Of a stretch of 64,000 bases of DNA, positions 3,976 through 63,234 are shown piece after piece. This DNA comes from Betaproteobacteria bacterium. GTDB lineage: Bacteria; Pseudomonadota; Gammaproteobacteria; Burkholderiales; SG8-41. Under the pieces are notes generated by a model that did no database searches, was not told where the DNA came from, and saw only the letters and a program-made list of their open reading frames with translations. The translations under genes and the position numbers were made by a program. Numbering within the stretch: the first letter of the stretch is position 1; the number at the start of each line of letters is the position of its first letter. The DNA lies in the NCBI GenBank assembly GCA_900299145.1, contig OMIN01000098.1, positions 6,081-70,080 of the forward strand, written 5' to 3'.

Positions 3976-5616
3976 ATGACTACACCTGATTACGATTACA
4001 TCATTGTCGGCGCGGGTTCGGCTGGCTGCGTGCTCTCCAACCGGCTTTCCGCGTCGGGCAAACACCGTGTGCTGCTGCTGGAAGCGGGCAAGGAAGAAAA
4101 CTGGCACTGGATACGCATTCCCGCCGGCATTGCACACGTGCTGCTGGGCGAGCGCGCGTTGTGGCGCTTCAAGACTGAGCCCGATGAAAAAGTGGATGGC
4201 CGCTCGATTTTCTGGCCGCGCGGGCGCGCACTCGGCGGCTCCAGTGCGGTCAACGGCATGATCTGGGTACGTGGCGATCCGCTGGAGCTGGATCACTGGG
4301 CTTCACTCGGCAACACGGGTTGGGCTTACAAGGATGTGCTGCCGCTCTTGAAGCGAATGGAGTCGTACGCACTGGGTGACCCGGACTATCGCGGCAAGGA
4401 TGGCCCCATGTATATCACCCGCTACGTGGATCGCGACCCGCTATCCAACGCGTTTATCGAAGGCGCAGGCAAGGCTGGCGTGCCGGTGGTGGAGGATTAC
4501 AACGCCGCGCGTTTCGAGGGCGTGAGCTATCTGCAATACAACACGCGCTTTGGACGGCGCCGCCATACAGGTGACAATTACCTGCTACCGGCGATGGGCC
4601 GCGCCAACCTAAAGGTCGAAACTGGCGCGTTGACGCAACGCGTTGTGCTCAACGGCAAGCGCGCCACCGGCGTAGTTTACAAAAAGGGTAACGAGCTTAT
4701 TACGGCCAACGCCAAGCGCGAAGTCATTTTGTGTGCGGGCGCGGTGCAGTCGCCGCAGTTGCTGGAGCTTTCCGGCATCGGCAATCCTGATGTGTTGAAG
4801 CGCGCCGGCGTGACACCGTTGCACGAACTGAACGGCGTCGGCGAAAGCCTGCGCGACCATTTGCATGTACGTGTGGCGTTCGAGACGCACCTGCGCACCA
4901 ATCTCAACGTGATTCTGCGTAATCCATTGAAGCAGGCATGGATGGGCGCGCGCTGGCTGTTCCTCGGGCGCGGGTTGATGACGACTTCGTCCGCGACGTC
5001 GATGGCCATCGCGCGCACCGATCCCGCCCTTGACCGACCAAATGTGAAGTTACAGTTGTATCACCTGTCGATGGCGAGCAGCCATTATGGCGGTACGGGC
5101 GAAGCCACCAACTTTGCTGACCGCATGGGCCTCGACAAATATCCGGGCTTTTCCATCGGTTGTTATGTGCTGCGGCCGGAGTCGCTGGGCTCCATTCACA
5201 TCAAGACGGCGAATGTGGGCGACCCGCCGGAAATCCGCGCCAACTATCTTGCCGCCGAAGCCGACCGGCGCAACATGATTGATGCGCTGAAAATGATTCG
5301 CAAAATAGCATCGCTGCCACCGTTGTCGAACCTGGCGTTGCGCGAAACACGCCCCGGCCCGCAGGCCAACACTGACGAAGCCCTGCTCGACCACGCGCGT
5401 GCCACCGGTATGACGTCCTATCACCCCATCGGCACCTGCCGCATGGGCAGCGATGCCAAGGCCGTGGTCGATCACAAACTCAAGGTGCACGGCATTGAGG
5501 GTCTGCGGGTGGGTGATGCGTCGATCATGCCGACCATGGTGGCGTCGAATACCAACGCGCCCTCAATCATGATCGGCGAAAAGGCTTCCGACCTGGTGCT
5601 TGCGGATGCAAATTAA
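3976..5616 (+). CDS. GMC family FAD-dependent oxidoreductase (choline dehydrogenase-like)
   Basis: DYIIVGAGSAGCVLSNRLS ADP-binding motif and C-terminal HPIGTCRMG. The ATG at 3976 is preferred over the upstream TTG at 3952. Confidence 0.9.
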   Translation: MTTPDYDYIIVGAGSAGCVLSNRLSASGKHRVLLLEAGKEENWHWIRIPAGIAHVLLGERALWRFKTEPDEKVDGRSIFWPRGRALGGSSAVNGMIWVRGDPLELDHWASLGNTGWAYKDVLPLLKRMESYALGDPDYRGKDGPMYITRYVDRDPLSNAFIEGAGKAGVPVVEDYNAARFEGVSYLQYNTRFGRRRHTGDNYLLPAMGRANLKVETGALTQRVVLNGKRATGVVYKKGNELITANAKREVILCAGAVQSPQLLELSGIGNPDVLKRAGVTPLHELNGVGESLRDHLHVRVAFETHLRTNLNVILRNPLKQAWMGARWLFLGRGLMTTSSATSMAIARTDPALDRPNVKLQLYHLSMASSHYGGTGEATNFADRMGLDKYPGFSIGCYVLRPESLGSIHIKTANVGDPPEIRANYLAAEADRRNMIDALKMIRKIASLPPLSNLALRETRPGPQANTDEALLDHARATGMTSYHPIGTCRMGSDAKAVVDHKLKVHGIEGLRVGDASIMPTMVASNTNAPSIMIGEKASDLVLADAN

Positions 5617-8806: not shown

Positions 8807-9793
8807 TCACGTCGCAGGTTTCGTATAAGCGCCGATATCCCTGAAAAACGCCCGGTATTCCTCCACCCGCTGGACGAGCAGCTTCGCATATTCCGCGCTG
8901 CCGAGGTAGCGGTCTTCGTAGTAATAGCGCTTCACTTGATCCTGCCATGCGGGAGTTTTGTGCGCGCGCTCAAGCACTTTTTCCATCTGCGCCGCGATGT
9001 CTTTGGATACCCCGGCGGGGAAGGAAAAGCCTCGCAGCGTGCCGGCGTCGATCTTGTAGCCGGCTTCCGCCGCGGTGGGCAGATCGGGCATTTGTGGCAG
9101 GCGCGTGAGTGAGGTAATGGCCAGAGCGCGCAGCTTTTTGGATTCAAGCATGGCAAGGCCTTCGCTCAGATTTTCGGTGGTGAAATGCGTATGCCCTCCG
9201 GCGACCGAGAGCACGGCTTCGCCGCCGCCCTTGAAAGTGACAAATTTGAACTTGGCGCCTGGCGCCAATTTCTCCAGATAATGAATGACCTGACGCCCCG
9301 AGCCGAGCGGGTTGGTAATGGCGCCGACAATGGTGTCGGGCGTCTTGCGGGCAGCTTCAGCGAGATCGCGCAAGGTCTTGTAGGGTGAATCCGCGCTCAC
9401 CATGACGGCCTGCGGGTCGACGGCCAGCAGCGCGAGCGGCGTGTAGTTTTCAAGTCCGATCTTCACATCCTCTCGCGCGGCCATGATGGCCACGGTTCCG
9501 GTGGCCGCGATCATGGTGTACGGATCACCACGTTTGGTCTGAAAATAGTTGATTGCAATGAGGCTGCTGCCGCCCGTGCGGTTTTGCACCAGCAGTTGCC
9601 GTGGCAGCAGCTTTTCGCGGCGTACGATATCGGCGAGTGCGCGCGCATAAATATCGGTGCCGCTGCCGGGCGAGGTCGGCACCACCACTTCTATTGAGCG
9701 TGTGGGATAGTTTTGACCCCGCGCGTTTGTACATATCGCGACGGCGAGCACAGCAGTGGTCAGAGCCGCCAAGGAATTCAGGCCTTTCGTCAT
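8807..9793 (-). CDS. Bug family (TctC-like) substrate-binding protein
   Basis: YPTRSIEVVVPTSPGSGTD motif and FKGGGEAV. Confidence 0.85.
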   Translation of the reverse strand: MTKGLNSLAALTTAVLAVAICTNARGQNYPTRSIEVVVPTSPGSGTDIYARALADIVRREKLLPRQLLVQNRTGGSSLIAINYFQTKRGDPYTMIAATGTVAIMAAREDVKIGLENYTPLALLAVDPQAVMVSADSPYKTLRDLAEAARKTPDTIVGAITNPLGSGRQVIHYLEKLAPGAKFKFVTFKGGGEAVLSVAGGHTHFTTENLSEGLAMLESKKLRALAITSLTRLPQMPDLPTAAEAGYKIDAGTLRGFSFPAGVSKDIAAQMEKVLERAHKTPAWQDQVKRYYYEDRYLGSAEYAKLLVQRVEEYRAFFRDIGAYTKPAT

Positions 9794-9859
9794 GCGGGTC
9801 TCCTCGTGATGGCGTCGCCGCCTTGTTCGCGGGTAATGGTGCTGCGGTGCGTTGCCCCG

Positions 9860-10750
9860 TCAACGGCCGGTAAATTTAGGCGAACGCTTTTCAAGGAACG
9901 CCGCTACGCCCTCTTTGTGATCCTGCGTCTTTCTCGCGAGATCCTGCGCGCGGCTCGCGAGCGCCATATGTTCGGCCAGATCCTGTTGCGTGGCCTGATG
10001 CACCAGTTGTTTGATGAGGCCCATCGCATAGATCGGCCCCTTGGCGAGCCGCGTGGCGATTTCAATGGCACGGTCGAGCACCTTTGCGTCATCCACCACT
10101 TCGTTAACCAGCCCGATGCGTGCCGCCTGTTCGCCGTCGACCGCATCACCGGTGTATTGCATCCACAGCGTGTTCGCCATGCCGATAAGCTTGGGCAATT
10201 GCCACGTGCTGCCGTCCGCCGGGATAAGGCCGTTGCGAATAAACGCTTCTGAAAAACGCGCCGCGCGCCCGGCAACGCGCAAATCACACGCCAGCGCAAT
10301 ACCACAACCGAGACCATACGCCGCGCCGTTGACGGCTGCGATCGACGGCTTTTGCAGGTTGTGCAACACGCGCACGATTTCCGGCCCCATGCGCTGGTTG
10401 CCGCGTTCGCGTGCGCCGTAAACCGGGTCGAGCGCTTCCCAAGGCCCCGGCGCCGGCTCGCCCTTGGCGGCCGCGGCCTTTTCCTTACCGGATTTTTCCG
10501 CCTCTTCAATCCGCTTTTTGAACCCACGCACATTGGCGCCGGAACAAAATGCCGTGCCCGCGCCGGTGAGCACCAGACAGCGCAGATCCGGGTTATCGGA
10601 AAAATCGTGAATGGTTTGAATCAGATCGTCCGTCAGCGCGGGGCCGAGCGCGTTGCGCGTGGCGGGGTCGTTGAGCGTGAGTATCAACACGCCGTCGGCG
10701 GTTTGGCGTTTGAGCAGTACTTCGGCATCTGTTGCAGAGGTGGTAGACAT
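9860..10750 (-). CDS. enoyl-CoA hydratase/isomerase family protein
   Basis: Crotonase fold with LVLTGAGTAFCSGANV and AAVNGAAYGLGCGIALACD. Confidence 0.85.
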   Translation of the reverse strand: MSTTSATDAEVLLKRQTADGVLILTLNDPATRNALGPALTDDLIQTIHDFSDNPDLRCLVLTGAGTAFCSGANVRGFKKRIEEAEKSGKEKAAAAKGEPAPGPWEALDPVYGARERGNQRMGPEIVRVLHNLQKPSIAAVNGAAYGLGCGIALACDLRVAGRAARFSEAFIRNGLIPADGSTWQLPKLIGMANTLWMQYTGDAVDGEQAARIGLVNEVVDDAKVLDRAIEIATRLAKGPIYAMGLIKQLVHQATQQDLAEHMALASRAQDLARKTQDHKEGVAAFLEKRSPKFTGR

Positions 10751-10907
10751 GTCGACTCCTAGTTTAATTTTTGCGTTGCGCCAACCCGATGTTGGTGATG
10801 TGTAACGGTATCCTACCGGGGTAACCGCTTCCGGTGGTAAGCCACGACGAGTGACTATTTAGTCTGCCAAACTGATGGGCCATCCGCAAATAGACATCCC
10901 GACTGAC

Positions 10908-10942
10908 GAAAATATTATATCGAATAAAAACAAACACTTACG
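10908..10942 (+). repeat. AT-rich dispersed element copy
   Basis: GAAAATATTATATCGAATAAAAACAAACACTTACG, located in the 675-bp non-coding gap. Confidence 0.85.
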
Positions 10943-11424
10943 ATATAAATAACCTGCGATACCGTTACAGACCTTGCCCGTTCAGACGGGTTACATGGTC
11001 GGGGCTCGGGCCGACAGGGATTCGGCTGGCAATAGGCGGTTGAAAGCCCTTTCTTCAGAATTGCCTATAGTGCCTAGTAACCTGTCGTCGACAACGGCCA
11101 AGCCAAAATCATCTGCACCACTTGAGATAAACCTACCGGCAACCGACACCACTTTTGGTTGATGTTCATCTGCGTCAGTCCTCGTTGAACACCGGCAACA
11201 CTGGAGTGCCGCGCCGCCGCATTCTACGCCGGCTCAACTATACGGAAGTGCCAAAAAATTTCGCAATGGCCGTACTACTCGCGGGTTGCGGAGCAACGCG
11301 CATCAGCCCACAGGTATCCTGTCATGCCCTGCACCAGCAAATAGCCAGCAGTCTGCCGCGCACGGGTAGGGCAGTGTAGACTACCGCGAGTGCCACTGCG
11401 TACAGCAACCGGATTGATCGATAC

Positions 11425-12324
11425 ATGCCCTGGCAAGCCACCACCCTCATCGTAGACGCCCGCTGCGTCGAAACCCTCTCTGATCTGCTGTTGGAGGCGG
11501 GCGCGTTGTCGGTGGATGTTTCCGACGCGGCGGCGGGCACGCCAACTGAGCGGCCGTTGTTTGCGGAGCCGGGTAGTGCGCCGGTGTCAAACTGGCCCGT
11601 GAACCGGGTAGTCGCGCTGTTTAACGAAGGAGCCGATATTGCCGAGCTGATACCCGCCGCCCTGCAGGCGGCGCGATTGCCGGCGACCACGCCGTATGGC
11701 ATCGACCGCGTCAACGATCAGGATTGGGTGCGCTTGACGCAATCGCAATTCACGCCCGTGAAAATTTCGTCGCGCCTGTGGATCGTGCCTACCTGGCACG
11801 AAGTCGTCGACGCGGCGGCGATCAACATTCGCCTCGATCCGGGCCTCGCGTTCGGCACTGGCACGCATCCAACGACACGGCTGTGTCTGCGCTGGCTCGA
11901 TGCGCATCTGAATCGCGGCGAATCGGTGATCGATTACGGCTGCGGTTCGGGCATTCTCGCGATCGCCGCGATGAAGTTGGGTGCGGCCAGCGCCGCCGGC
12001 GTGGATATCGACGAGCAGGCGTTGCTTGCCGCGCGCCGTAATGCCCTGCAAAATCAGACGCAGGTGACTTTTTACGCGGCGGAAGAGAAATTGACTGACT
12101 TGACGGCGCCCGCTGATGTGGTCGTGGCAAACATCCTCGCGAACCCGCTGACGGTGTTGGCGCCCCTGCTTGCGCGGCTGACACGGCGCGGCGGTTACGT
12201 CGTCCTGTCGGGCATCCTCGCGCCGCAGGCCGATGAAGTGCGTGTGGCGTACGCGCCATGGTTCGACATGCACGCCACCGATCCGGATGGTGATTGGGTG
12301 GCGCTCAGCGGGCGGCGGTTGTAG
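11425..12324 (+). CDS. prmA: ribosomal protein L11 methyltransferase
   Basis: GTGTHPTTRLCL and DYGCGSGILAI SAM-binding motifs. Confidence 0.92.
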   Translation: MPWQATTLIVDARCVETLSDLLLEAGALSVDVSDAAAGTPTERPLFAEPGSAPVSNWPVNRVVALFNEGADIAELIPAALQAARLPATTPYGIDRVNDQDWVRLTQSQFTPVKISSRLWIVPTWHEVVDAAAINIRLDPGLAFGTGTHPTTRLCLRWLDAHLNRGESVIDYGCGSGILAIAAMKLGAASAAGVDIDEQALLAARRNALQNQTQVTFYAAEEKLTDLTAPADVVVANILANPLTVLAPLLARLTRRGGYVVLSGILAPQADEVRVAYAPWFDMHATDPDGDWVALSGRRL

Positions 12325-51942: not shown

Positions 51943-52030
51943 TGCGGTTCCCCTAAAATTTTCAACCATTGAAAACTGCTTTTAGATGAGAGGTTTGCCG
52001 GCATCGGTGGGCCCGATGCCAGCGGGTTTG

Positions 52031-53321
<1,291 letters not shown>

Positions 53322-53359
53322 GGTAGAGCCTCCCGTTAATTAAACTGCATTGACGTAAA

Positions 53360-53375
53360 AGCACATAGCGTGCCA
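53360..53375 (-). promoter_or_regulatory. sigma-54 (-24/-12) promoter candidate
   Basis: Minus strand reads TGGCAC-GCTAT-GTGCT (consensus TGGCAC-N5-TTGCW), ~40-55 nt upstream of the porin ATG. A GGAGG Shine-Dalgarno lies in between. Confidence 0.7.
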
Positions 53376-53377
53376 GT

Positions 53378-53407
53378 GAAAATATATCAATAAAATCATA
53401 TATTTAC
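53378..53407 (+). repeat. AT-rich dispersed element copy (variant with ATCA core)
   Basis: GAAAATATATCAATAAAATCATATATTTAC. Located between the sigma-54 promoter and the NtrC-like sites. Confidence 0.75.
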
Positions 53408-53431
53408 ATAAAAATTTGCTTGCGTGAAATG

Positions 53432-53446
53432 GCACTGTAACGGTGC
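53432..53446. promoter_or_regulatory. NtrC-like enhancer half-site pair
   Basis: GCACTGTAACGGTGC fits GCAC-N7-GTGC, as in TGCACC-N5-GGTGCA. Confidence 0.5.
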
Positions 53447-53463
53447 AGGCCCCCGTCATTAGC

Positions 53464-53478
53464 GCACTTTCGTGGTGC
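53464..53478. promoter_or_regulatory. NtrC-like enhancer half-site pair
   Basis: GCACTTTCGTGGTGC fits GCAC-N7-GTGC. Confidence 0.5.
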
Positions 53479-53557
53479 GTTTTTTGTGGCGCAAATTTCG
53501 CGCGGCGCACGGGCGCAAGCGGTTTGCTAGACTAACGATTGCGCTGGAGAAAGTGCC

Positions 53558-53797
53558 ATGAATAAACCTGCATTCGAAGAATTATTCAATAAAATCAATA
53601 ATTTATTGAAAAACACCCCGGCGGTCGACGTGGAAAAGAATTTGCGCGCGCTGTTATCGTCGACTTTTTCGCGATTGGATCTGGTGACGCGAGAGGAATT
53701 TGACGTGCAACGCGAAGTGCTGGTGCGCTCCCGCGAAAAAATTACCCAGCTTGAGGCGCGAATCTCCGAGCTGGAACGCGCGCAACGCGCCAACTGA
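53558..53797 (+). CDS. ubiK: ubiquinone biosynthesis accessory factor UbiK (YqiC/BMFP family)
   Basis: 79-aa coiled-coil protein with [16 protein letters not shown]...LEARISELE. Confidence 0.8.
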
Positions 53798-53801
53798 ACC
53801 G

Positions 53802-54443
53802 ATGTCCTTGGCCGTTTTGCACAGCCGCGCGCTGGCGGGTGTTGAGGCGCCGCCGGTGGATGTCGAGGTTCATCTGGCCAACGGCTTGCCGAGCTTCACC
53901 ATCGTTGGCTTGCCCGAAGCCGAGGTGAAGGAATCGAAAGACCGCGTGCGCGCGGCGTTGCAAAACGCGCGTTTCGAATTTCCCCTGCGGCGTATCACGG
54001 TGAATCTCGCGCCGGCCGATTTGCCCAAGGAATCGGGGCGGCTGGATTTGCCGATTGCATTGGGCATACTCGCCGCGTCAGGGCAGATTCCCGCCGACAA
54101 ACTCAGCGAATACGAATTCGCCGGCGAGCTCGCGCTGACCGGTGCGTTGCGCCCGATACGCGGCGCGCTCGCCATGACCCTGGGTGCGCTGAAAGATGGC
54201 CGCGCGTTTGTGCTGCCTCCCGACAACGCCGCCGAAGCCGCGCTGGTTGAAAACGCCACGGTCTACGCGGCGCCATCACTGCTGGCGGTGTGCGCGCATT
54301 TGCTGGGGCAGGCAAATTTGCCGTCTATCAAAGCGCACCGGCGATAACCGCGCAAAGTTACGCTGATCTGCTGGATGTCAAAGGCCAGGCTCATGCCAAG
54401 CGCGCGCTCGAAATCGCGGCAGCGGGAGGCCACAGCCTGTTGA
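53802..54443 (+). pseudogene. comM: comM/yifB (Mg-chelatase-like ATPase) 5' fragment, interrupted and frameshifted
   Basis: MSLAVLHSRALAGVEAPPVDVEV...ITVNLAPADLPKESGRLDLPIALGILAASG. The frame changes near 54310-54345 and then reads DLLDVKGQAHAKRALEIAAAGGHSLL up to the island junction. Confidence 0.85.
54431..54443. repeat. attL core (direct repeat)
   Basis: CACAGCCTGTTGA here versus CACAGTCTGTTGA at 60119. A 10-bp inverted repeat lies nearby (GAGACCAATA at 54457, TATTGGTCTC at 60103). Confidence 0.75.
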
Positions 54444-54504
54444 AGTTGTTTACGTGGAGACCAATAACAATTAATATGGCCCCCTTCACGTTGCTGGGGA
54501 CAGC

Positions 54505-56073
54505 ATGCCAAAGGCTTACAGCTATTTGCGGTTCTCAACGCCAGAGCAGCAGAAAGGGGATAGCTCGCGGCGACAAACCTCGCTGGCGAGGGAGTATGCG
54601 CAGAAACACAAGCTGGAACTGGATGAAAGCCTCACCTATCGGGACTTAGGCGTTTCAGCATTCCGCAACAAGAATGCGCGAGTAGGGCAGCTTGCTGAAT
54701 TTCTCCTAGCCGTTGAGAACGGAACAATCGCCAGCGGCAGCTATTTATTAATTGAAAGTCTCGACCGCCTAACGCGTGAAAAGATTGTCGCGGCGCAGAC
54801 ACTGTTTAATCGAATCATCATGGCGGGGATAGTCATTGTCACCCTCGCGGACAATAAGGTATATAGCCATGACAGTCTAAACGCAAACCCCGTTGATATG
54901 ATTCTGTCCCTGTTGGTTATGATGCGGGCCCACGAAGAAAGCGAAACAAAGGGCCGGAGGATTAAAGCAGCGTGGAAGCAAAAGCGAGTGATGGCAGACA
55001 CTCGGAAATTGACCAAGTTGTGCCCCGGCTGGCTGACGCTACGCGATGACCGCTCGCAATTTGATATTGTGAAAGAGCGTGCCGCAGTGGTAAAGCGCAT
55101 CTTCCGCATGACGCTGAAAGGCACCGGGAGGAAAACGATTGCGCGCACTCTCAATGAAGAAAAGATTCCGTCATTCAATGGGGCCGTATGGCATAGCAGT
55201 TACATCGCCAAGCTGCAAAGCAACCCGGCAACTATCGGGACATTTGTGCCGCACACCGAGGAGCACCAAGACGGTAAGACAATACGAACGCCCGCTGAGG
55301 CCATACCGAACTACTTCCCCCCAGTTATCACGAAGGACACGTTTGAACGTGTGCAGTCGCTACGGGGCGAGGCACGCAGCCCGCTACGGGGGCGGCACGC
55401 ATCCGGCATCATAAGTAATATTCTCGGGGGGCTGGGACGCTGCCCCACCTGTGGCGGCGCTGTGACTGTCACCAACAAGGGCGGCAGCAAGGGGACATGG
55501 CGATATTTCATTTGCACCAAGGCCAAGGCGGGGGCGGCTGACTGCCGTTATCGGACTATCCCGTATGGCGAAGTGGAGCGTGCCATCATCGCGGAGTTTG
55601 ACAGCATCGTTGCGGATTGCCCCGCACCAAACAGCGCAGCACGTGAGATAGAGACGAAACTGCGAGATGTGGGGGACAACATAGAGGCAACGAAAGACGC
55701 AATTGAAGAATTATTAAAAGCGATTGAGCGCGCGGGTAAAAGCCCCGCGACAGTAATGCAGCGCGTAAGCGACCACGAGGCCACAATAAAAGACCTTCAG
55801 GGCACAGAGAAGGCTCTATTAAAACAACTCGCAGCAGCGGCATCCAAGGGATTAGAGCAGAAACTAGAGCAGGCCCGAAAGGCCCTAGCGGCGGCACCCA
55901 TCAATAGACAGGCCGTAAATATAGCACTGCGACAACTCCTTACCAGCGTAGTGATAGACCCAGAAAGCGGCGAGCTTACGTTCCATTGGATGCATGGCGG
56001 GGAGAGCAGCTTTACTTATCGTTGGTTTAAACCTGTTGCACGGAAGGGCGCACGGCCACGGATAGCCACCTAG
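54505..56073 (+). CDS. large serine recombinase (integrase)
   Basis: YSYLRFSTPEQ catalytic-Ser resolvase domain, a recombinase domain, a Zn ribbon (CPTCGG...C) and a C-terminal coiled coil. 522 aa. Confidence 0.9.
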   Translation: MPKAYSYLRFSTPEQQKGDSSRRQTSLAREYAQKHKLELDESLTYRDLGVSAFRNKNARVGQLAEFLLAVENGTIASGSYLLIESLDRLTREKIVAAQTLFNRIIMAGIVIVTLADNKVYSHDSLNANPVDMILSLLVMMRAHEESETKGRRIKAAWKQKRVMADTRKLTKLCPGWLTLRDDRSQFDIVKERAAVVKRIFRMTLKGTGRKTIARTLNEEKIPSFNGAVWHSSYIAKLQSNPATIGTFVPHTEEHQDGKTIRTPAEAIPNYFPPVITKDTFERVQSLRGEARSPLRGRHASGIISNILGGLGRCPTCGGAVTVTNKGGSKGTWRYFICTKAKAGAADCRYRTIPYGEVERAIIAEFDSIVADCPAPNSAAREIETKLRDVGDNIEATKDAIEELLKAIERAGKSPATVMQRVSDHEATIKDLQGTEKALLKQLAAAASKGLEQKLEQARKALAAAPINRQAVNIALRQLLTSVVIDPESGELTFHWMHGGESSFTYRWFKPVARKGARPRIAT

Positions 56074-56258
56074 ATGCACACATAGGGCGTGAGGGCTGAC
56101 GCTGTGCCCAAATTTCTGCCAAATATTTCTTTGAGGGCATCCCATAAACTTCGCTTTTGGAATTTCCCCCCGTCTCAAATTTTACCTATTACAAACGAGC
56201 AAGAAAGCAACTTGCTTCGCGTTACACATGCTGTTCACACAGCGTGAGCGGGCCAGCA

Positions 56259-56525
56259 TCAGCGAGGCGCACGAACGGCAGAGCATTCGTAGCTCACGGT
56301 GCGGAGCTCTTTCCCATCCACCAGCCCTGCCACCTCGTATGGGTAGCAGAAATCAACTGTTCCGGTGAGCCGGTCAATCCGCACAACGCGATGGGAGTAT
56401 TCATGCATAGCAGTTGAAACCTCGTATCGCTGGCTTAGACCAATAAATACCAGCGCAGCGGAAAGCACCAAGCCCGCGACTATGACAGCGCGGCCCACCT
56501 TCGCCACATCGGATGCGGTGTTCAT
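56259..56525 (-). CDS. hypothetical small membrane protein
   Basis: 88-aa ORF with one clear TM helix (AVIVAGLVLSAALVFIGL). No family recognised. Confidence 0.4.
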   Translation of the reverse strand: MNTASDVAKVGRAVIVAGLVLSAALVFIGLSQRYEVSTAMHEYSHRVVRIDRLTGTVDFCYPYEVAGLVDGKELRTVSYECSAVRAPR

Positions 56526-56716
56526 GTTCAGGCCCCTTGTTGGTATCAGTCGGCACCGAGTCTAGCAGCGCACCACCCTGTTAGATGACGGTCGATTTCC
56601 AACAGTGCCTTATGCTGCCCGCACACCCTGTTAAGAAATTAGTGCTGTACATTACTAACGGTCTGTACTATTCTGGCAGCGTTTTCTGACACCCACACAA
56701 CATGGAGACGCACAAC

Positions 56717-57295
56717 ATGGCCACCTTTGGATACGGACGCGTTAGCACTACTGAGCAGAGCACCGAGAACCAGCGTATGGAGATTGAGCGTGCGGGCTAT
56801 AAACCTGAATACTGGTTTGCGGATGATGGTGTAAGTGGCGCGGTGCTTGCGGCGCAGCGCCCCGAATTCAAGGCCATGCTAGGCAAGATACGCAGCGGTG
56901 AGAACCTAGTGGTTACCAAGATAGACCGCCTTGGGCGCGACGCCATAGACATTCAGCAGACCGTGAAAAGTCTTAAGGGTGCCGGGGTGCGTGTGTTCGT
57001 GACACAGCTAGGGGCCACAGACCTAACGAGTTCAGCCGGGAAGATGCTACTAGCGATGCTGTCCGCCTTTGCGGAGATGGAGCGCGACCTGATTGTGGAA
57101 CGCACGAAGGCGGGACTGGCACGCGCTAAAGCAGAGGGCAAACAACTGGGACGCAAGCCGAAGACTACCGAGGCCCAGCGCGTGGTCATCCGTGCGGCAC
57201 TAGCCAGCGGCGAGACGGTAAGTGAGATGGCACGCCGCAGCGGACTGAGCAGAGCATCCGTTATCAGCATCCGGGGGGCGGCAAGCGCGCCTTAG
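56717..57295 (+). CDS. small serine recombinase (resolvase/invertase family)
   Basis: MATFGYGRVSTTEQ catalytic motif and a C-terminal HTH (GETVSEMARRSGLSRASV). Confidence 0.9.
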   Translation: MATFGYGRVSTTEQSTENQRMEIERAGYKPEYWFADDGVSGAVLAAQRPEFKAMLGKIRSGENLVVTKIDRLGRDAIDIQQTVKSLKGAGVRVFVTQLGATDLTSSAGKMLLAMLSAFAEMERDLIVERTKAGLARAKAEGKQLGRKPKTTEAQRVVIRAALASGETVSEMARRSGLSRASVISIRGAASAP

Positions 57296-57325
57296 CCACT
57301 GCGATACCACCACGGGGACACAGAG

Positions 57326-57346
57326 GGGGCCGGAATGGCCCCTTTT
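57326..57346 (+). terminator. intrinsic terminator-like hairpin after the resolvase gene
   Basis: GGGGCC-GGAAT-GGCCCC followed by TTTT. Confidence 0.55.
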
Positions 57347-57702
57347 CCATTTCTATCATTAGGGTGCGGGGCGTTGTGGGCCCCTAACCCTCACTCTTGC
57401 CCCTCTCCTCTCCGCTGGTAAGCGTCCGGCGATGCCCCAGCAGTGCCACCAGTGGGCCCCATGAGGGCATCAGTAAGTAACCCGCCGGGGCACAGCGATA
57501 GAACGCGACAGGGCGCGCCCCACGCGTTTGTGGCTACTGAACCCACCAACGCACTAGCCGGGACAGTCCGGACGCTATGGCGGGCCACGTGGGGCCACGG
57601 CGGGGCACTCACATGGGGCGGGGTGAATCACGCAGCAACTCAACCGAAGAAAGGGAATACGGCAGTGAATGAAGAAACGGCAGCGACCACAGGGAGAACG
57701 TC

Positions 57703-57921
57703 ATGAGCGGCACAGCAGAAAAGATGGTTTACAGGCAAGTGGCAATTCCGGTCAGTGCATTTGACTGGCTGAAGCACCAGCAGCGCACCCACGAGGCACA
57801 ACTGGGCTACTGCATAAGCAACAGTGAGGCCCTCGCACTGATTATCAGTGAGCACAAAAGATTAACCGTAGAAAGTGGAGCACATCAGAATGTCATTACT
57901 CACAGCAAAGGCCGCGCTTGA
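57703..57921 (+). CDS. hypothetical protein
   Basis: 72-aa ORF overlapping the start of the ParB-like gene. No family recognised. Confidence 0.35.
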   Translation: MSGTAEKMVYRQVAIPVSAFDWLKHQQRTHEAQLGYCISNSEALALIISEHKRLTVESGAHQNVITHSKGRA

Positions 57922-58714
57922 GGCACAGATTAAAGCAGGCACAGCGCCCGCTGTAGCACAGCCCCGCACGTTGCCACTAGACGCAATTGGGGAACTCCCA
58001 GAAGTATTTCAGCACCGGACGCCATGCGAGATTGACCAGAAGATGCATATCATTGAGTTAGCGCGGGTGCTGAAGGGCGGCAACTCTCTCGCTGAAATAG
58101 CTATCTTTTGGGATGGGAAGCGATGGGTATGTGTCGATGGGCACCACCGCCTTGCCGCCTATCGGGCAGTAAAGTGGGAAAGGGGCGTGCCGGTGAAAGT
58201 GTTTGTTGGCACTGTAGCCCAAGCCATGCTCCGGGCGGCAGGGAACACGCGCGACAGGTTGCCAATGCGCAAGGCAGAGAAGATGAATACCGCATGGCGG
58301 CTTGTCCTCGCTGGCGGTCTTACTAAGAAAGAGATTGTGGATGGTGCGGCAGCGTCGGATGGCATCGTCGGGCGCATGCGTCATGTTGCAAAGTCATTGT
58401 CACGCCGAGAGCCTGAGACAGACCTGAGCGGAATCACTTGGGAACAAGCGCGTAGGAAATTTGACGGGGAAGACAGCCGCACTCACGAAGATATGGAAAG
58501 ATGGGTGCATGAGCAGGCGAAGGCGACCGCTGATAAGCTCGTGAAGGCGCTAGGACGCCCCAAGCACTGGAACCGAGAGATACTTTTAGAGGCCCTAGAA
58601 ATATGCGACGTGAAACTGCCCGCCTTTGCCGCCGAACACTGGCGCAGACGCTGGGCCGATTTCGATGAAGACGCGGAGCAGCTTGCTGAGGGAGAGGAAA
58701 AAGACGATTTCTAA
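57875..58714 (+). CDS. ParB/Srx-like nuclease-domain protein
   Basis: WDGKRWVCVDGHHRLAAY matches the ParB N-terminal domain DGxHR motif. The start could instead be the ATG at 57890. Confidence 0.75.
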   Translation: MEHIRMSLLTAKAALEAQIKAGTAPAVAQPRTLPLDAIGELPEVFQHRTPCEIDQKMHIIELARVLKGGNSLAEIAIFWDGKRWVCVDGHHRLAAYRAVKWERGVPVKVFVGTVAQAMLRAAGNTRDRLPMRKAEKMNTAWRLVLAGGLTKKEIVDGAAASDGIVGRMRHVAKSLSRREPETDLSGITWEQARRKFDGEDSRTHEDMERWVHEQAKATADKLVKALGRPKHWNREILLEALEICDVKLPAFAAEHWRRRWADFDEDAEQLAEGEEKDDF

Positions 58715-58893
58715 CCGGGGCCACCAAGGGGAAGCCGCAAGGCACCAGCGCGGCCCCTTGGGGGTGCACAGCTAGACGGGGGTTTTTGCATATTCACCAG
58801 CCTATGCATTTGCATAGCCAGATGAGAGCCGTAGCCGGTTAAATGGCTGGGCATATCTGTTTTTTTGTTTTCGCTAATCGGCGCGCGTCCCCA

Positions 58894-59076
58894 CTAGGCA
58901 ACTAAGCGGTAAAGAAGCAAAACAACCAATCCAACAACCCAGAACCACGCGATGATTACAATGAACTTGGGCGGCGTATCGGCCACTGACCGCCCCGGCC
59001 AATCCCATAGCAATCTGTAAAGACCAAATAGAGCCATTGCGGCGATGCAGAGATTATAAAACGCCTGCTTATCCAT
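58894..59076 (-). CDS. hypothetical two-TM small protein
   Basis: 60-aa ORF with two hydrophobic helices. Weak support. Confidence 0.3.
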   Translation of the reverse strand: MDKQAFYNLCIAAMALFGLYRLLWDWPGRSVADTPPKFIVIIAWFWVVGLVVLLLYRLVA

Positions 59077-59555
59077 GAATTAACTCACCTCTCTTTATGC
59101 TGCAATACGCGCCCCTTCGCCAGACAATGGATGCGCACCTGCATTCAACCCGCCACGGCATTGTACAAAGCGACCTGAGTGTACTAATATCCGGCCCGCA
59201 CTACTAACAACACAACTAAAGGGGACACTTCATGTATCTACTTGGCCACGACGTTTTCATCTGCCGTAACATCGCTAAACCACTGCCCGGACATGCCGCA
59301 CACCCACGCCCGCTGCTGAGTATTGCGCGGGGATGGACAGAGCGCGATACGGAAATCATTGTGGGCCCGTGGGACGTGATAGTGAGCAAGTGCTACAGAG
59401 ATGGCACACCCCGGCAGAAACACAGCTAGGGCCACAGCGGGGCACCAGCGGGGCCATTCCGGGGCCACTGCTGGTGCCCCGGATGAATTCGTAAAGCCCC
59501 CGGATGTAATGGTTCTGGACTGTTGCCAGCCTGTGCGTCAAGTTAAAATACACAA

Positions 59556-60062
59556 ATGCGCGCAGCACTGACAACCCTTTTATTCCTCATCGCACCCGCT
59601 CAAGCCGCAACTATCAGCGGCAAGGTTATCAATGTGGCCGATGGCGACACTACTACAGTTCTCGACGTTGACCGCACGCAGCACCGTATTCGCATCGGTG
59701 GCATAGACGCGCCTGAAAGGAAGCAGCCTTTCGGTGACACAGCACGGCAGAGCATGGCGCGTATGGTGAGCGGTAAAGAAGTAGTTGCCGATTGCCACAA
59801 GGTAGACCGTTACGGTAGGCAGGTATGCAAGGTATTTGCGCAGCCCACTGATTGCCCAACGTGCGGCATGACGCTAGACGTGGGGCATGCCCAAATATTA
59901 GCGGGGATGGCTTGGTGGTATCGAGAATACGCGAAAGAACAGCCAGCGGAAGACCGTGTGCGTTACGAGGCAGCGGAGCAAGATGCCCAAGCGCGTAAGC
60001 TGGGGCTGTGGCGCGATGCGAACCCCGTTGCGCCGTGGGAATGGCGGCGTAGGGCAAAGTGA
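59556..60062 (+). CDS. secreted thermonuclease (staphylococcal nuclease homologue)
   Basis: Signal peptide, GDTTTVLD...IRIGGIDAPE, and a C-terminal ARKLGLW. Confidence 0.88.
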   Translation: MRAALTTLLFLIAPAQAATISGKVINVADGDTTTVLDVDRTQHRIRIGGIDAPERKQPFGDTARQSMARMVSGKEVVADCHKVDRYGRQVCKVFAQPTDCPTCGMTLDVGHAQILAGMAWWYREYAKEQPAEDRVRYEAAEQDAQARKLGLWRDANPVAPWEWRRRAK

Positions 60063-60118
60063 TACTCCTCCTCTTTTTGGCGGCGGCGCGGGTGCTTCGC
60101 GGTATTGGTCTCAGAAAG

Positions 60119-60131
60119 CACAGTCTGTTGA
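60119..60131. repeat. attR core (direct repeat)
   Basis: CACAGTCTGTTGA, identical at 12 of 13 positions to 54431-54443. Confidence 0.75.
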
Positions 60132-60991
60132 TGGTCGGCCCGCCTGGCACCGGAAAAACCATGCTCGCGCAGCGGCTCCCTGGAATTTTGCCGCCGATGA
60201 CACAGCAGGAGGCGCTCGAATCGGCGGCCATGCAATCGCTCGGCAGCGCTGGCTTTGATGTCTCGAAATGGAAGCAGCGCCCCTACCGCGCGCCGCATCA
60301 CACTGCATCGGGCGTGGCGCTCGTCGGCGGCGGCGGCAACCCGCGCCCCGGCGAAATCTCCATGGCCATGCACGGTGTGCTGTTTCTGGATGAGCTGCCG
60401 GAGTTTGAACGCAAGGTGCTCGAAGTGCTGCGCGAGCCACTGGAATCCGGGCGTATCACCATTTCACGCGCGGCACGGCACGCGACTTTTCCTGCGGTAT
60501 TCCAGATGGTTTGTGCGATGAATCCGTGCCCGTGCGGATTTTTGGGACACTTTTCAGGGAAGTGCCGGTGTTCACCGGATCAGGTGGCGCGCTACCGCTC
60601 GCGAATTTCCGGCCCGCTGCTTGACCGCATTGATCTGCAAATTGAAGTGCCCGCACTGCCGCAGGAGGACTTGACGCGGCAAGGGCAAGGGAATGGTGAT
60701 TCGTCGGACACCGTGCGCGCGCGCGTCACCGCCGCACGCGAACGCGCTCTCGCGCGCCAGCAAAAACCCAACTCGCATTTGTCGACACGTGACATCGACA
60801 AACACTGTGTGCCCGACGAAAAAGGCGAAACGTTGCTAAAGCAGGCGATCAGCCGCATGGGCCTGTCGGCGCGTGCGTATCACCGCATACTCAAGGTGGC
60901 GCGCACGGTAGCTGATCTGGCGAACGTTGATACGGTTGCCAGCGCGCACATTGCCGAGGCGATACAGTATCGGCGGTTTGAGCGGGGGTGA
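60132..60991 (+). pseudogene. comM: comM/yifB 3' fragment
   Basis: (M)VGPPGTGKTMLAQRLPGILPP...GVLFLDELPEF...DRIDLQIEV...RAYHRILKVARTVADL. This resumes exactly where the 5' fragment stops. Confidence 0.88.
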
Positions 60992-61085
60992 GCGTGCTTT
61001 CTTTTACGACGGACAGGCAGGGTGCTGCGAAACAAGCGTTGCCGTTAACCTTACACTTTTATTAACTGATGCGGAATTTTGTGCC

Positions 61086-62279
61086 ATGTCTTTTCATGCT
61101 TCTAACACCCCCGGCAAGTCTGAATTGTCCTTGATCGAGGCTGCTCGCGAGCTTGTGCCGCTCGTCAAACAACACGCCGATCAAACCGATGCGGATCGCG
61201 AGCTGCCGAAGCCGCTGTTCCATGCGCTCGCCGACGCGGGCTTTTACCGCATGGCCGTCGCGCGAGCCGTCGGCGGGCTGGAAGTGGATTTCCCGACGTA
61301 TCTGCAAGTGCTTGAAGCACTGGGCACCGGCGACGCCAGCACCGCATGGACGGTCAGTCAGGGCGCGAATTGGGGAACCTACTCCGCGTGCATGCCGCAG
61401 GCCGCGGCGCGTGAAATCTGGACCGACACACCGCGCAGCGTGGTGTCAAACTCCCCCTCGCCAACGGCGAAGGCGGTGGCCGTACCGGGTGGATATCGCG
61501 TCACCGGCCGGCAGCCGTTTAGCACCGGCATCAAACATGCGTCGTGGGTCGCGGCCCACGCGCAAGTCATCGAAAACGGCGTAGTGCGGCAGCACAATGG
61601 CAAGCCCGAAGCGCGCTATTGCCTGATTCCAAAACGCGAGGTCGAGGTTATCGACGCTTGGCACACCAAGGGCATGCGCGGCACGGGCACACACACGTTC
61701 GACGTGAAAGATGTTTTCGTGCCCGAGGCGCGCACCGTGTTTCCACGGGGGGCGCAGCTCATCAGCCCGGGGCCGCGCTACAAAATTCCGGTAACGTTGG
61801 GCTTTGCGGCGGGTGATGGCATGGTGGCGCTGGGACTTGCGCGCAACTGTCTGGAGGCGTTTTACGAAGTGGCGGGCTCCAAGGCGCCGCGCAACATGAC
61901 GGGCCTGTTGCGTGAACAATCGATCACCCAGTTGGCCGCCGGGCAAGCCGAGGCCGCGTTGCGCGCCGGGCGCGCGTATCTGCTGTCGGCGGCGCAGGAA
62001 ATCTGGGCCTCGGCCGTGGCCACCAGCGAACCCGTGGCGAGCCTTGAGTCGCGCATCAATCTGCGGTTGGCATCAACGCACGCCATCCGGCTTGCCGCGC
62101 AGGTGGTTGACGGCCTGCATCCGCTTTGCGGCGCGACGGTGGTGTTTGACGGCCACCTTATCCAGCGCCTGTTTAACGACATGCACGTCATCACGCAACA
62201 CAGCCAGGGCCGTTTCCAGCACTATGAAATCTCGGGCAAGTACTACACCGGGCTGGAGATCGACGAAGGGCGCTTGTAA
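61086..62279 (+). CDS. acyl-CoA dehydrogenase-fold flavoprotein (monooxygenase-like)
   Basis: 397 aa with the ACAD-type three-domain pattern. It lacks the typical C-terminal catalytic Glu context and neighbours the TauD-like gene. The ATG at 61086 is preferred. Confidence 0.7.
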   Translation: MSFHASNTPGKSELSLIEAARELVPLVKQHADQTDADRELPKPLFHALADAGFYRMAVARAVGGLEVDFPTYLQVLEALGTGDASTAWTVSQGANWGTYSACMPQAAAREIWTDTPRSVVSNSPSPTAKAVAVPGGYRVTGRQPFSTGIKHASWVAAHAQVIENGVVRQHNGKPEARYCLIPKREVEVIDAWHTKGMRGTGTHTFDVKDVFVPEARTVFPRGAQLISPGPRYKIPVTLGFAAGDGMVALGLARNCLEAFYEVAGSKAPRNMTGLLREQSITQLAAGQAEAALRAGRAYLLSAAQEIWASAVATSEPVASLESRINLRLASTHAIRLAAQVVDGLHPLCGATVVFDGHLIQRLFNDMHVITQHSQGRFQHYEISGKYYTGLEIDEGRL

Positions 62280-62328
62280 AGCGTAAAGGTTTGTCTGATG
62301 CTGGGGCGGCGGGGCGCAAAGGCTGCTT

Positions 62329-63234
62329 TTACACCGGCCGGTCGCCGCACATTTGCACGCGGTGCATCACGCGCGGAAACTTCCATACATCGTTGACGGC
62401 AATATGCAGCGTGCAACGGTTGTCCCATACCGCGACCGAGCCTTTCTCCCAGCGAAAGCGGCAGGTGAATTCGGGGCGTGCCGCGTGCTGCAACAGAAAC
62501 CCAAGCAATGGCGCGCTCTCCTCGGAGGTCATTGCGGAAAAGCGCTGCGTATAAGATTTATTGACGAACAGGGTTTTGCGGCCGGTTTCGGGGTGCGTAC
62601 GCACGACGGGATGCTCAGACACCGTCTCGCGCCATTGTGCGTCTTCGCGCACCTTGTTCGTGCGATGCTTGTTGCGCCCGGCTTGCGGCCCCGCAACCGT
62701 GATGTCGCTGTGCACGGCCTTCAGGTTCGATAACAGTGCCTTCATGCCATCGGAAAGCCTTTCATACGCGAGATAGCCGTTGGCGAACAGCGTGTCGCCG
62801 CCATAGGGCGGCACGTCCACGCCATACAGCACGGCGCCACTGGGCGGCTCCGCCATGCAGGTGGTGTCGGCATGCCAGTCTTCCCCGACAATTTGCGTAT
62901 CGCCCGGCGTGCGGCGAATACGGACGATGTCGGGATACGGCCCTTCGGTCAGCAGATTCGGGTGGCGGAACAGGGGTGCGAAGCGGCGGCCAAAGGCGGT
63001 CAGCGCATCGTCATCGAGCGCCTGACCGCGGAAAAAGATCACCAGATGCTCCCGCCACGCGCGCCGGATTTCAGCGAAGGTCGCGTCGTCTATCGGGCGG
63101 CTGACATCGACGCCACCGATCTCGGCGCCGAGTGCGCCGGCCAGCGGTGAGACCGAGATGCGCGTGTATTCGTTCGCATATTCGTTGGCCTGCTCATTCG
63201 GATGGCTCGGTACGGGCGACAGTGTGCTGGACAT
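62329..63234 (-). CDS. TauD/TfdA family Fe(II)/2-oxoglutarate dioxygenase
   Basis: EDWHADTT (HxD) motif, and distal His/Arg in VWDNRCTLHIAVND and RVMHRV. Confidence 0.88.
   Translation of the reverse strand: MSSTLSPVPSHPNEQANEYANEYTRISVSPLAGALGAEIGGVDVSRPIDDATFAEIRRAWREHLVIFFRGQALDDDALTAFGRRFAPLFRHPNLLTEGPYPDIVRIRRTPGDTQIVGEDWHADTTCMAEPPSGAVLYGVDVPPYGGDTLFANGYLAYERLSDGMKALLSNLKAVHSDITVAGPQAGRNKHRTNKVREDAQWRETVSEHPVVRTHPETGRKTLFVNKSYTQRFSAMTSEESAPLLGFLLQHAARPEFTCRFRWEKGSVAVWDNRCTLHIAVNDVWKFPRVMHRVQMCGDRPV

Follow-up and report, generated by a model that had tools for sequence, protein, structure and literature searches.

A small large-serine-recombinase island splits comM in an uncultured betaproteobacterium and has relatives at the same comM site in many phyla

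RESULTS

comM is interrupted by a 5.7-kb island that encodes a large serine recombinase

We analyzed a 64-kb stretch of contig OMIN01000098.1 from an uncultured betaproteobacterium (the whole stretch is here called the window), in which the gene comM is split by an island encoding a large serine recombinase (LSR). The gene is interrupted by 5,688 bp between the codons for ...GGHSLL and MVGPPGTGKT..., directly before the Walker A motif. The parts on the two sides, comM-N and comM-C, are listed with the other features in Table 1, and no second comM was found within the window. An earlier note, made by a model from the sequence alone, had described this split with the same break codons, but its junction coordinates are off by 1 nt: the last Leu codon of comM-N occupies positions 54440 to 54442 (not ending at 54443), and comM resumes with the Met codon at 60131 (not 60132). 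Nor does the comM frame stop at the junction, as had been stated; the comM-N frame continues into the island, to position 54649. The lower GC content claimed for the island was confirmed. It is 56.0%, compared to 60.9% in the remaining window (about 5.9 standard deviations lower), and every other 5.7-kb stretch in the window has at least 59.65%.

The 522-aa LSR gene, which the same note had placed beside the left attachment site, begins 63 nt after comM-N, and both lie on the same strand. Pfam recognizes three LSR domains in it, PF00239 at residues 4 to 161, PF07508 at residues 191 to 287, and PF13408 at residues 307 to 364. Across 28 homologues, the invariant positions include the catalytic serine S11 (YLRFSTPEQ), R9, D87/R88, and four cysteines (C313, C316, C337, and C347). 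All family-invariant residues are present in the window LSR, and its open reading frame (ORF) is full length. In LSRs, directionality is controlled by a coiled-coil motif within the zinc-ribbon domain; in the window LSR, residues 356 to 467 gave weak, subthreshold Pfam matches to the helical families OmpH and DUF6276. Gene callers start the LSR later, and a 417-aa version (P0002) is found in the assembly index, where the exact 522-aa form has no match.

At the other end of the island, the comM-C frame is open for 24 codons upstream, to a GTG at 60059 that overlaps the stop codon of the last island gene, which encodes a Staphylococcal-nuclease-type (SNase) protein (GTGA, 60059 to 60062). A truncated, AAA+-only ComM could in principle arise by translational coupling from this GTG. 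The island arm before comM-C also encodes HSLL, a mimic of the lost comM codons.

The junctions are attachment sites with a predicted 2-nt crossover in a conserved Leu codon

The earlier note had reported a 13-bp direct repeat at the junctions and a 10-bp inverted repeat inside the ends. Both are present. The direct repeat, CACAGCCTGTTGA at 54431 to 54443 and CACAGTCTGTTGA at 60119 to 60131, is 13 nt long with one mismatch, and the 10-nt inverted repeat consists of GAGACCAATA at 54457 to 54466 and TATTGGTCTC at 60103 to 60112. The 5.8-kb region holds many chance repeats that are as long or longer, and neither terminal repeat is among those displayed. What gives them significance is that they sit exactly where comM is broken and are conserved in the family described below, not their length.

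To compare junctions, 32 nonredundant complete islands of this family were all set in the comM-sense orientation. The consensus is ...CAC AAC CTG CTN / ..TTG..AC(N4-5)RGACC at the N-side junction and GGTCY(N4-5)GT...CTG CTG / ATG GTN GGN CCN at the C-side junction, where the slash marks the break. The dinucleotide that opens the second Leu codon (offset -3/-2) is the same at both junctions in 30 of the 32 islands (CT in 23, TT in 5, and the palindromic AT in 2), compared to at most 19 of 32 at any other offset. This means that the crossover occurs at these two bases. In the window, the single C/T mismatch of the direct repeat lies where such a crossover predicts. The Ser codon is AGC in all five closest intact orthologues (L084 to L088), so the C of the mismatch comes from the bacterial site (attB) and the T from the element's site (attP), which locates strand exchange on the right-hand side of the mismatch, inside CTGTTGA.

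The attP sites reconstructed from these junctions have the consensus gGgtct...Gt..a.aacaTG-cT-catgtt....ac...ag..CC, with strong dyad symmetry 16 to 22 nt from the center. The conserved arms are GGGTCT/AGACCC; the window attP conforms to this consensus, and attB is a pseudo-palindromic coding stretch of comM. LSR attachment sites are typically short and dyad symmetric, have a nonpalindromic dinucleotide at the center, and leave no target duplication; the sites here agree, apart from the palindromic AT of two islands. The inverted repeat is thus the conserved GGTCT/AGACC motif, the best-conserved part of the two attP arms. The direct repeat is the stretch common to attB and attP around the 2-nt crossover, and not a target duplication.

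The same junctions bear on an AbaR-like explanation, in which a Tn7-type transposon inserted into comM. AbaR islands duplicate 5 bp of their target. No target-site duplication is seen here; the core common to both ends is imperfect and resembles comM codons, and the junctions have dyad arms of the LSR type. Moreover, the Pfam families in the island are only Resolvase, HTH_7, Recombinase, Zn_ribbon_recom, and SNase, so no transposase-type domain was found, and neither Pfam nor PHROGs gave a TnsA/B/C- or TniA/B/C-like domain in any island ORF. A Tn7-like transposon is thus refuted by the gene content of the island, and although the target gene is the same as that of the Acinetobacter AbaR/AbGRI islands (PMC11472951), we give this explanation practically no chance.

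Relatives have empty sites, and all copies found of the island lie at the same junction

When the two flanks are joined, they encode a 500-aa ComM. A protein-guided scan found five intact comM orthologues (L084 to L088) that are 84 to 90% identical to it over residues 1 to 500. All five carry an uninterrupted CACAGC(C/T)TG(C/T)TGATGGTCGGCCCGCC, and in one of them (L087) the upstream gene order, P-II, porin, ubiK, and comM, is as in the window. The earlier note had suggested a search for empty sites in related genomes and had named, as outcomes that would speak against it, the lack of an empty site anywhere and the presence of the same 5.7 kb at a different locus. The first is contradicted by these orthologues, and the second was never seen.

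Two other metagenome assemblies of the same organism (L001 and L002) match the window at 99.96% identity across 19 kb. Both carry the island, and each of the three copies sits at this comM junction. The three assemblies are near-clonal and therefore say little about fixation. The comM-N part is open up to and through the junction in L001 and L002, whereas in the window one A is missing between G 54312 and C 54313 (GGACAAATT in L001 and L002 versus GGCAAATT in the window). This 1-nt deletion shifts the comM-N frame and leads to a stop at 54345 to 54347 in the window copy. It may be either an assembly error or early pseudogene decay. A T-run at 58860, in the spacer that follows the ParB-like gene, has one T fewer in the window than in L001 and L002, a difference in homopolymer length.

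A family of LSRs adjoins comM at two conserved motifs

Among the candidates scored in a protein search, 860 were relatives of the LSR, and a scan of one genome per species with the alignment of 28 LSRs gave 451 relatives, of which the best 80 were kept for locus analysis. Nearby comM sequences were located by tblastn with the two halves of the window ComM. These 80 LSRs are 38 to 48% identical to that of the window and come from many phyla; hosts include Alpha-, Beta-, and Gammaproteobacteria, Gemmatimonadota, Planctomycetota, and Leptospira. Culturable carriers of such islands include Aquamicrobium defluvii DSM 11603, Halomonas ventosae, and Dongia mobilis. About 70 of the 80 LSR genes are next to a split comM. 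In 63 of the 80, no more than about 100 nt separate the LSR gene from a comM fragment cut at exactly the residue cut in the window. Four others (L021, L046, L064, and L073), with LSRs about 40% identical to the window LSR, split comM at a second conserved motif, GLPxFTIVGL, at codons ~29 to 37, with the same GGGTCT/AGACCC arms. Another four (L016, L019, L024, and L063) have the C part of comM 0.26 to 1.9 kb from the LSR gene, and the rest either sit at a contig end or lack a comM within 10 kb. The family-wide comparison and the uninterrupted attB sites together bear out the claim that comM is split by a serine recombinase island with recognizable attachment sites.

Three further observations concern individual loci. 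First, the right half-sites of the two comM attB sites are alike (ATGGTCGGCC and ATAGTCGGAC). Second, the family reaches spirochete pathogens; a 43%-identical LSR adjoins the C part of comM in Leptospira interrogans LS0056 (L030, positions 9058 to 11494). Third, in a Gemmatimonadaceae metagenome-assembled genome (L003, positions 10001 to 12313, also L053), comM-N is fused in frame to the LSR in a 770-aa protein (P0080), which is annotated as "magnesium chelatase domain-containing protein"; the 8-kb island there also has a ParB_N-like gene and a small resolvase. This fusion is an annotation trap, and it hints that the LSR could be expressed from the comM promoter.

Complete islands range from 3.7 to 10.9 kb (n = 32). 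A small resolvase is present in 16 of 31 and a ParB-N protein in several. Other cargo is variable and includes Eco29kI-type restriction-modification with Vsr, HNH, Mrr, McrB-like, RNase H, SNase, and ArsB proteins, among others. A definition of the family by one defense system was dropped, as PADLOC and Pfam runs on the pooled cargo of 31 islands gave no single conserved cargo.

One explanation for the island is a remnant prophage or phage satellite that lysogenizes at comM by means of its LSR, as phage WO of the sr1WO group integrates in a Mg chelatase gene (PMC9203015). Related LSRs (30 to 40% identity) do occur at the ends of 30- to 50-kb IMG/VR viral contigs and in the Burkholderia phages Bcep176 and Bcep22. 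However, structural, packaging, and lysis genes were not found in the island with PHROGs and Pfam, and all 32 complete family islands are small and carry nonphage cargo. Close relatives of the LSR are absent from the phage and plasmid collections, where the best matches have at most 41% identity over part of the protein. In IMG/VR, there were 37 relatives in 2.9 million viral contigs compared to 451 in genomes, and only one viral locus adjoins comM. A phage origin of this kind therefore seems to us extremely unlikely.

Islands of the family lie in either orientation relative to comM

In 20 of the 63 loci, the LSR gene is next to the comM-N junction, which is the arrangement of the window; in the other 43, it is at the comM-C junction and divergent from comM. 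The two orientations are interleaved in a distance tree of 62 LSRs, and the nearest neighbor is in the comM-C state for 13 of 18 LSRs in the comM-N state. A good example is the closest relative of the window LSR (P0001/L201, 85% identity), which has the opposite orientation and adjoins comM-C (L201 positions 1 to 100 compared to window positions 54431 to 54505). The polarity of LSR recombination depends only on the central dinucleotide. Since attP and attB are both near-symmetric, a core change in attP would be expected to flip the insertion.

These orientations weigh on the idea that the island is a domesticated, reversible switch, kept by the host and excised precisely under competence-inducing conditions to restore comM, as with Listeria phi10403S at comK or skin at sigK. 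Some features agree with it. The insertion is scarless and in frame, so that excision would restore comM exactly; the position of the LSR gene close behind comM-N could allow read-through from the comM promoter to drive it, and in L003 the two are fused in frame; and the island is in all three sampled genomes. However, the repeated flipping, with the divergent state in the majority of loci and in the closest relative, means that promoter coupling is not conserved. In addition, the cargo varies widely, in the manner of selfish islands, Pfam and PHROGs gave no directionality factor, and comM-N is frameshifted in the window copy. We consider a host-kept switch very unlikely.

Other genes and intergenic features of the island

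Besides the LSR, the island encodes a small serine recombinase, a ParB-like protein, a nuclease, and four short ORFs (Table 1). Matches to PHROGs are limited to integrase, invertase, ParB-like, and nuclease families, and no phage structural, packaging, or lysis genes and no transposases were detected with PHROGs and Pfam. Homologues of the small resolvase are found in 34 of 81 other loci (L003 to L083), and those of the ParB-N protein in about 13 related loci. The 72-aa ORF before the ParB-like gene is weakly similar to an ORF at the equivalent place in the Gemmatimonadaceae island L003 (36% identity, E 4e-4), and it is possible that it encodes an accessory or directionality factor. The 88-aa ORF has no homologue in loci L003 to L083, outside this organism. 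The N terminus of the SNase-type nuclease, MRAALTTLLFLIAPAQA, resembles a signal peptide by eye, and two other comM islands have homologues (L013, 12839 to 13267; L070, 17772 to 18155). As a speculation, a secreted nuclease could further degrade exogenous DNA and be a second hit on DNA uptake beside the loss of comM.

Promoter and terminator scans stayed at chance level except for a terminator-like hairpin at 57322 to 57346, 3' of the small resolvase gene, and Rfam gave no RNA families in 52000 to 62500 at E <= 0.1. The intergenic regions 57320 to 57610 and 59429 to 59480 have GC-rich motifs in common, GGGCCACGGCGGGGCAC (57592) being similar to GGGCCACAGCGGGGCAC (59429). A perfect 13-nt inverted pair, CCGGAATGGCCCC (57330) and GGGGCCATTCCGG (59450), flanks the ParB-like block, and six of the nine matches to GGGGCMMC in the 64-kb window fall inside the island. 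The ParB-like protein or the small recombinase could bind or recombine at these motifs, or the motifs could simply be terminator hairpins.

Table 1. Features of the split comM locus (window positions) and related loci that use the second comM site
Feature	Position	Strand	Evidence
comM N-terminal part (comM-N), ChlI/Lon-like domain up to ...AAAGGHSLL	53802..54442	+	Pfam ChlI E 4.8e-46; tblastn and translation
attL: comM half-site (B arm), predicted crossover TT 54440-54441, element P' arm ending GAGACC (54457-54462)	54410..54470	+	Junction comparison, 32 complete islands
Large serine recombinase (integrase), 522 aa	54505..56073	+	Pfam Resolvase, Recombinase, Zn_ribbon_recom; phrog_95 integrase E 2e-79; invariant columns
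88-aa ORF, no family match; N-terminal segment hydrophobic by eye	56259..56525	-	ORF list, Pfam, PHROGs
Small serine recombinase (resolvase/invertase type), 197 aa	56702..57295	+	Pfam Resolvase E 1e-38 and HTH_7; phrog_125 DNA invertase E 1e-56
72-aa ORF, 5' of ParB-like gene and overlapping it	57703..57921	+	No Pfam/PHROG match
ParB/Noc/sulfiredoxin N-domain protein, 279 aa, DGHHR motif	57875..58714	+	Family profile vs PDB: Noc 7ng0 E 4.5e-6, Spo0J 1vz0 E 1.2e-5; phrog_1033 ParB-like E 5.8e-7
60-aa ORF, no family match; hydrophobic by eye	58894..59076	-	ORF list, Pfam, PHROGs
65-aa ORF, no family match	59232..59429	+	ORF list, Pfam, PHROGs
Staphylococcal-nuclease-type nuclease, 168 aa	59556..60062	+	Pfam SNase E 7.9e-20; phrog_452 endonuclease
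attR: element P arm (GGTCTC 60107-60112), predicted crossover TT 60128-60129, comM half-site (B' arm, GATGGTCGGCCCGCC...)	60095..60160	+	Junction comparison
comM C-terminal part (comM-C), AAA+ Mg_chelatase and Mg_chelatase_C, from MVGPPGTGKT	60131..60991	+	Pfam Mg_chelatase E 2.4e-85; ORF list
Second-site locus L021	9854-9958 and 15500-16897		
Second-site loci L046 and L064	about 351-932 and 4056-4696		
Second-site locus L073	about 9281-9950		

DISCUSSION

The 5,688 bp in comM are very probably an integrated genomic island that entered the gene by site-specific recombination through its own LSR. In the mechanism we propose, a circular element with a dyad-symmetric attP of ~50 bp, its arms GGTCT and AGACC roughly 16 to 22 nt from the center, would recombine with attB in the conserved comM codons GGHSLL/MVGPPG. 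The strands would be exchanged at a 2-nt core, positions 1 and 2 of the second Leu codon (TT in the window and CT in most relatives), without duplicated or lost bases, leaving a scarless split. The insertion would cut ComM between its N-terminal domain and the AAA+ motor, which should abolish the helicase function. Excision would need a directionality factor.

Some results count against this reading. In two of the 32 islands, the two junctions differ in the dinucleotide where the crossover is predicted. Exact searches gave no match to the reconstructed attB 32-mer in metagenome contigs and none to the attP 44-mer in viral contigs, so neither an empty site in the same population nor an excised circle was detected, and no directionality factor and no replication, transfer, or conjugation function was recognized in the island with Pfam and PHROGs. 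The presence of the island in all three assemblies gives no direct sign of activity, and if the comM-N deletion is real, excision would not restore comM in the window genome. Several of these points would be expected of an immobile remnant, a once-mobile LSR island that is now fixed and decaying, with comM a pseudogene: namely, the island in every assembly with a sequence equal apart from one T-run indel, the absent 32-mer, the frameshift, and the missing transfer functions. However, the LSR ORF is full length with its invariant residues kept, both junctions retain an identical core dinucleotide and conserved arms, comM-N is intact in two of the three assemblies, and the near-clonality of these assemblies makes them weak evidence on fixation. 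Decay to an immobile remnant is thus conceivable but, in our judgment, somewhat unlikely, and the intact recombinase and attachment sites of the integrated island suggest that it may still be active.

What such an insertion would mean for the cell can be predicted from work on ComM. Loss of ComM lowers heterologous transformation by roughly two orders of magnitude; mobile elements often hit comM, and the reduction is proposed to protect them from deletion by transformation (PMC11472951). If the split has this effect here, the element should be less easily lost by that route, and the organism is predicted to be impaired in recombination of heterologous DNA during natural transformation. Durrant et al. 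gave the same competence-disruption reading for LSR elements in general (Supplementary Note 1, PMC10083194). It is tempting to go further and view the minimal LSR islands as a distinct, undescribed class of "anti-transformation" elements that integrate at one of two comM motifs, facing either way, inactivate the ComM helicase, and in some cases, as here, add a predicted secreted SNase that would destroy incoming DNA as well. Both orientations would then be possible because a 2-nt core alone fixes polarity and readily flips over evolutionary time. Besides LSR integration, the elements might spread by transformation, with the very highly conserved comM sequences as homology arms. We regard this extended idea as unlikely. 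In a bolder version, excision may be regulated and the island may act as a reversible competence switch.

The earlier note had implied that a serine recombinase in comM is new, and this is not borne out. Homologues of Mg-chelatase/ATP-dependent proteases, the ComM Pfam families, are the target of 12.4% of predicted site-specific LSRs and the top LSR target (Durrant et al. 2022, Nat Biotechnol, PMC10083194). The same study finds an enrichment of competence genes among the targets and notes ComK as one of them in its supplement. Most Wolbachia sr1WO prophages likewise integrate in the Mg chelatase gene (Bordenstein & Bordenstein 2022, PMC9203015). The locus is therefore a member of the already reported, commonest target class of LSRs. 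It is a cleanly delimited example, from an uncultured betaproteobacterium, with attachment sites resolved to the nucleotide. The family-level results, that is, the attP arm motif, the crossover mapped in silico, the polarity flips between close relatives, and the second attB, are more useful than the single locus. The family is a natural data set on the evolution of LSR site choice and polarity and bears on integrase engineering. A limited literature search, which did not include the Durrant database, found no description of a family of small LSR, resolvase, and ParB-N islands with two orientations and a second comM site.

Comparison with known systems shows both shared and distinct features. 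First, in the LSR elements of Durrant et al., too, a ComM-family gene is split by an element with the LSR at its edge, LSRs from diverse clusters converge on one conserved coding site, and competence disruption is the proposed rationale (PMC10083194). Their study is a catalogue, however, and does not describe this 3.7- to 11-kb family with its recurrent small resolvase and ParB-N protein, two orientations, and second comM site, although the database itself was not compared. Second, WO prophages of the sr1WO group resemble the island in having an LSR in the host magnesium chelatase gene, with gene fragments on both sides and an attB that can be rebuilt by joining the flanks (PMC9203015). WO, however, is a full temperate phage with structural modules, whereas here there is a 5.7-kb island without phage genes, and no Wolbachia phage is among the 15 listed matches of the window LSR. 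Third, the comparison with AbaR islands made in the earlier note holds for the target gene but not for the mechanism. AbaR/AbGRI islands share with our island comM and the expected reduction in transformation that protects the element from curing (PMC11472951). They differ in that AbaR islands are Tn7-like transposons with Tni/Tns proteins, whereas here the recombination is of the conservative serine type and no transposase was found with Pfam. Finally, there are LSR elements that interrupt competence or developmental genes, such as Listeria A118/phi10403S in comK, and skin in sigK and SPbeta in spsM of B. subtilis. As in comM, the LSR-mediated interruption of a conserved coding sequence is scarless, and precise excision would restore the gene. 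In those elements, regulated excision is a genetic switch, whereas the variable orientation and cargo of the comM family argue for a selfish island.

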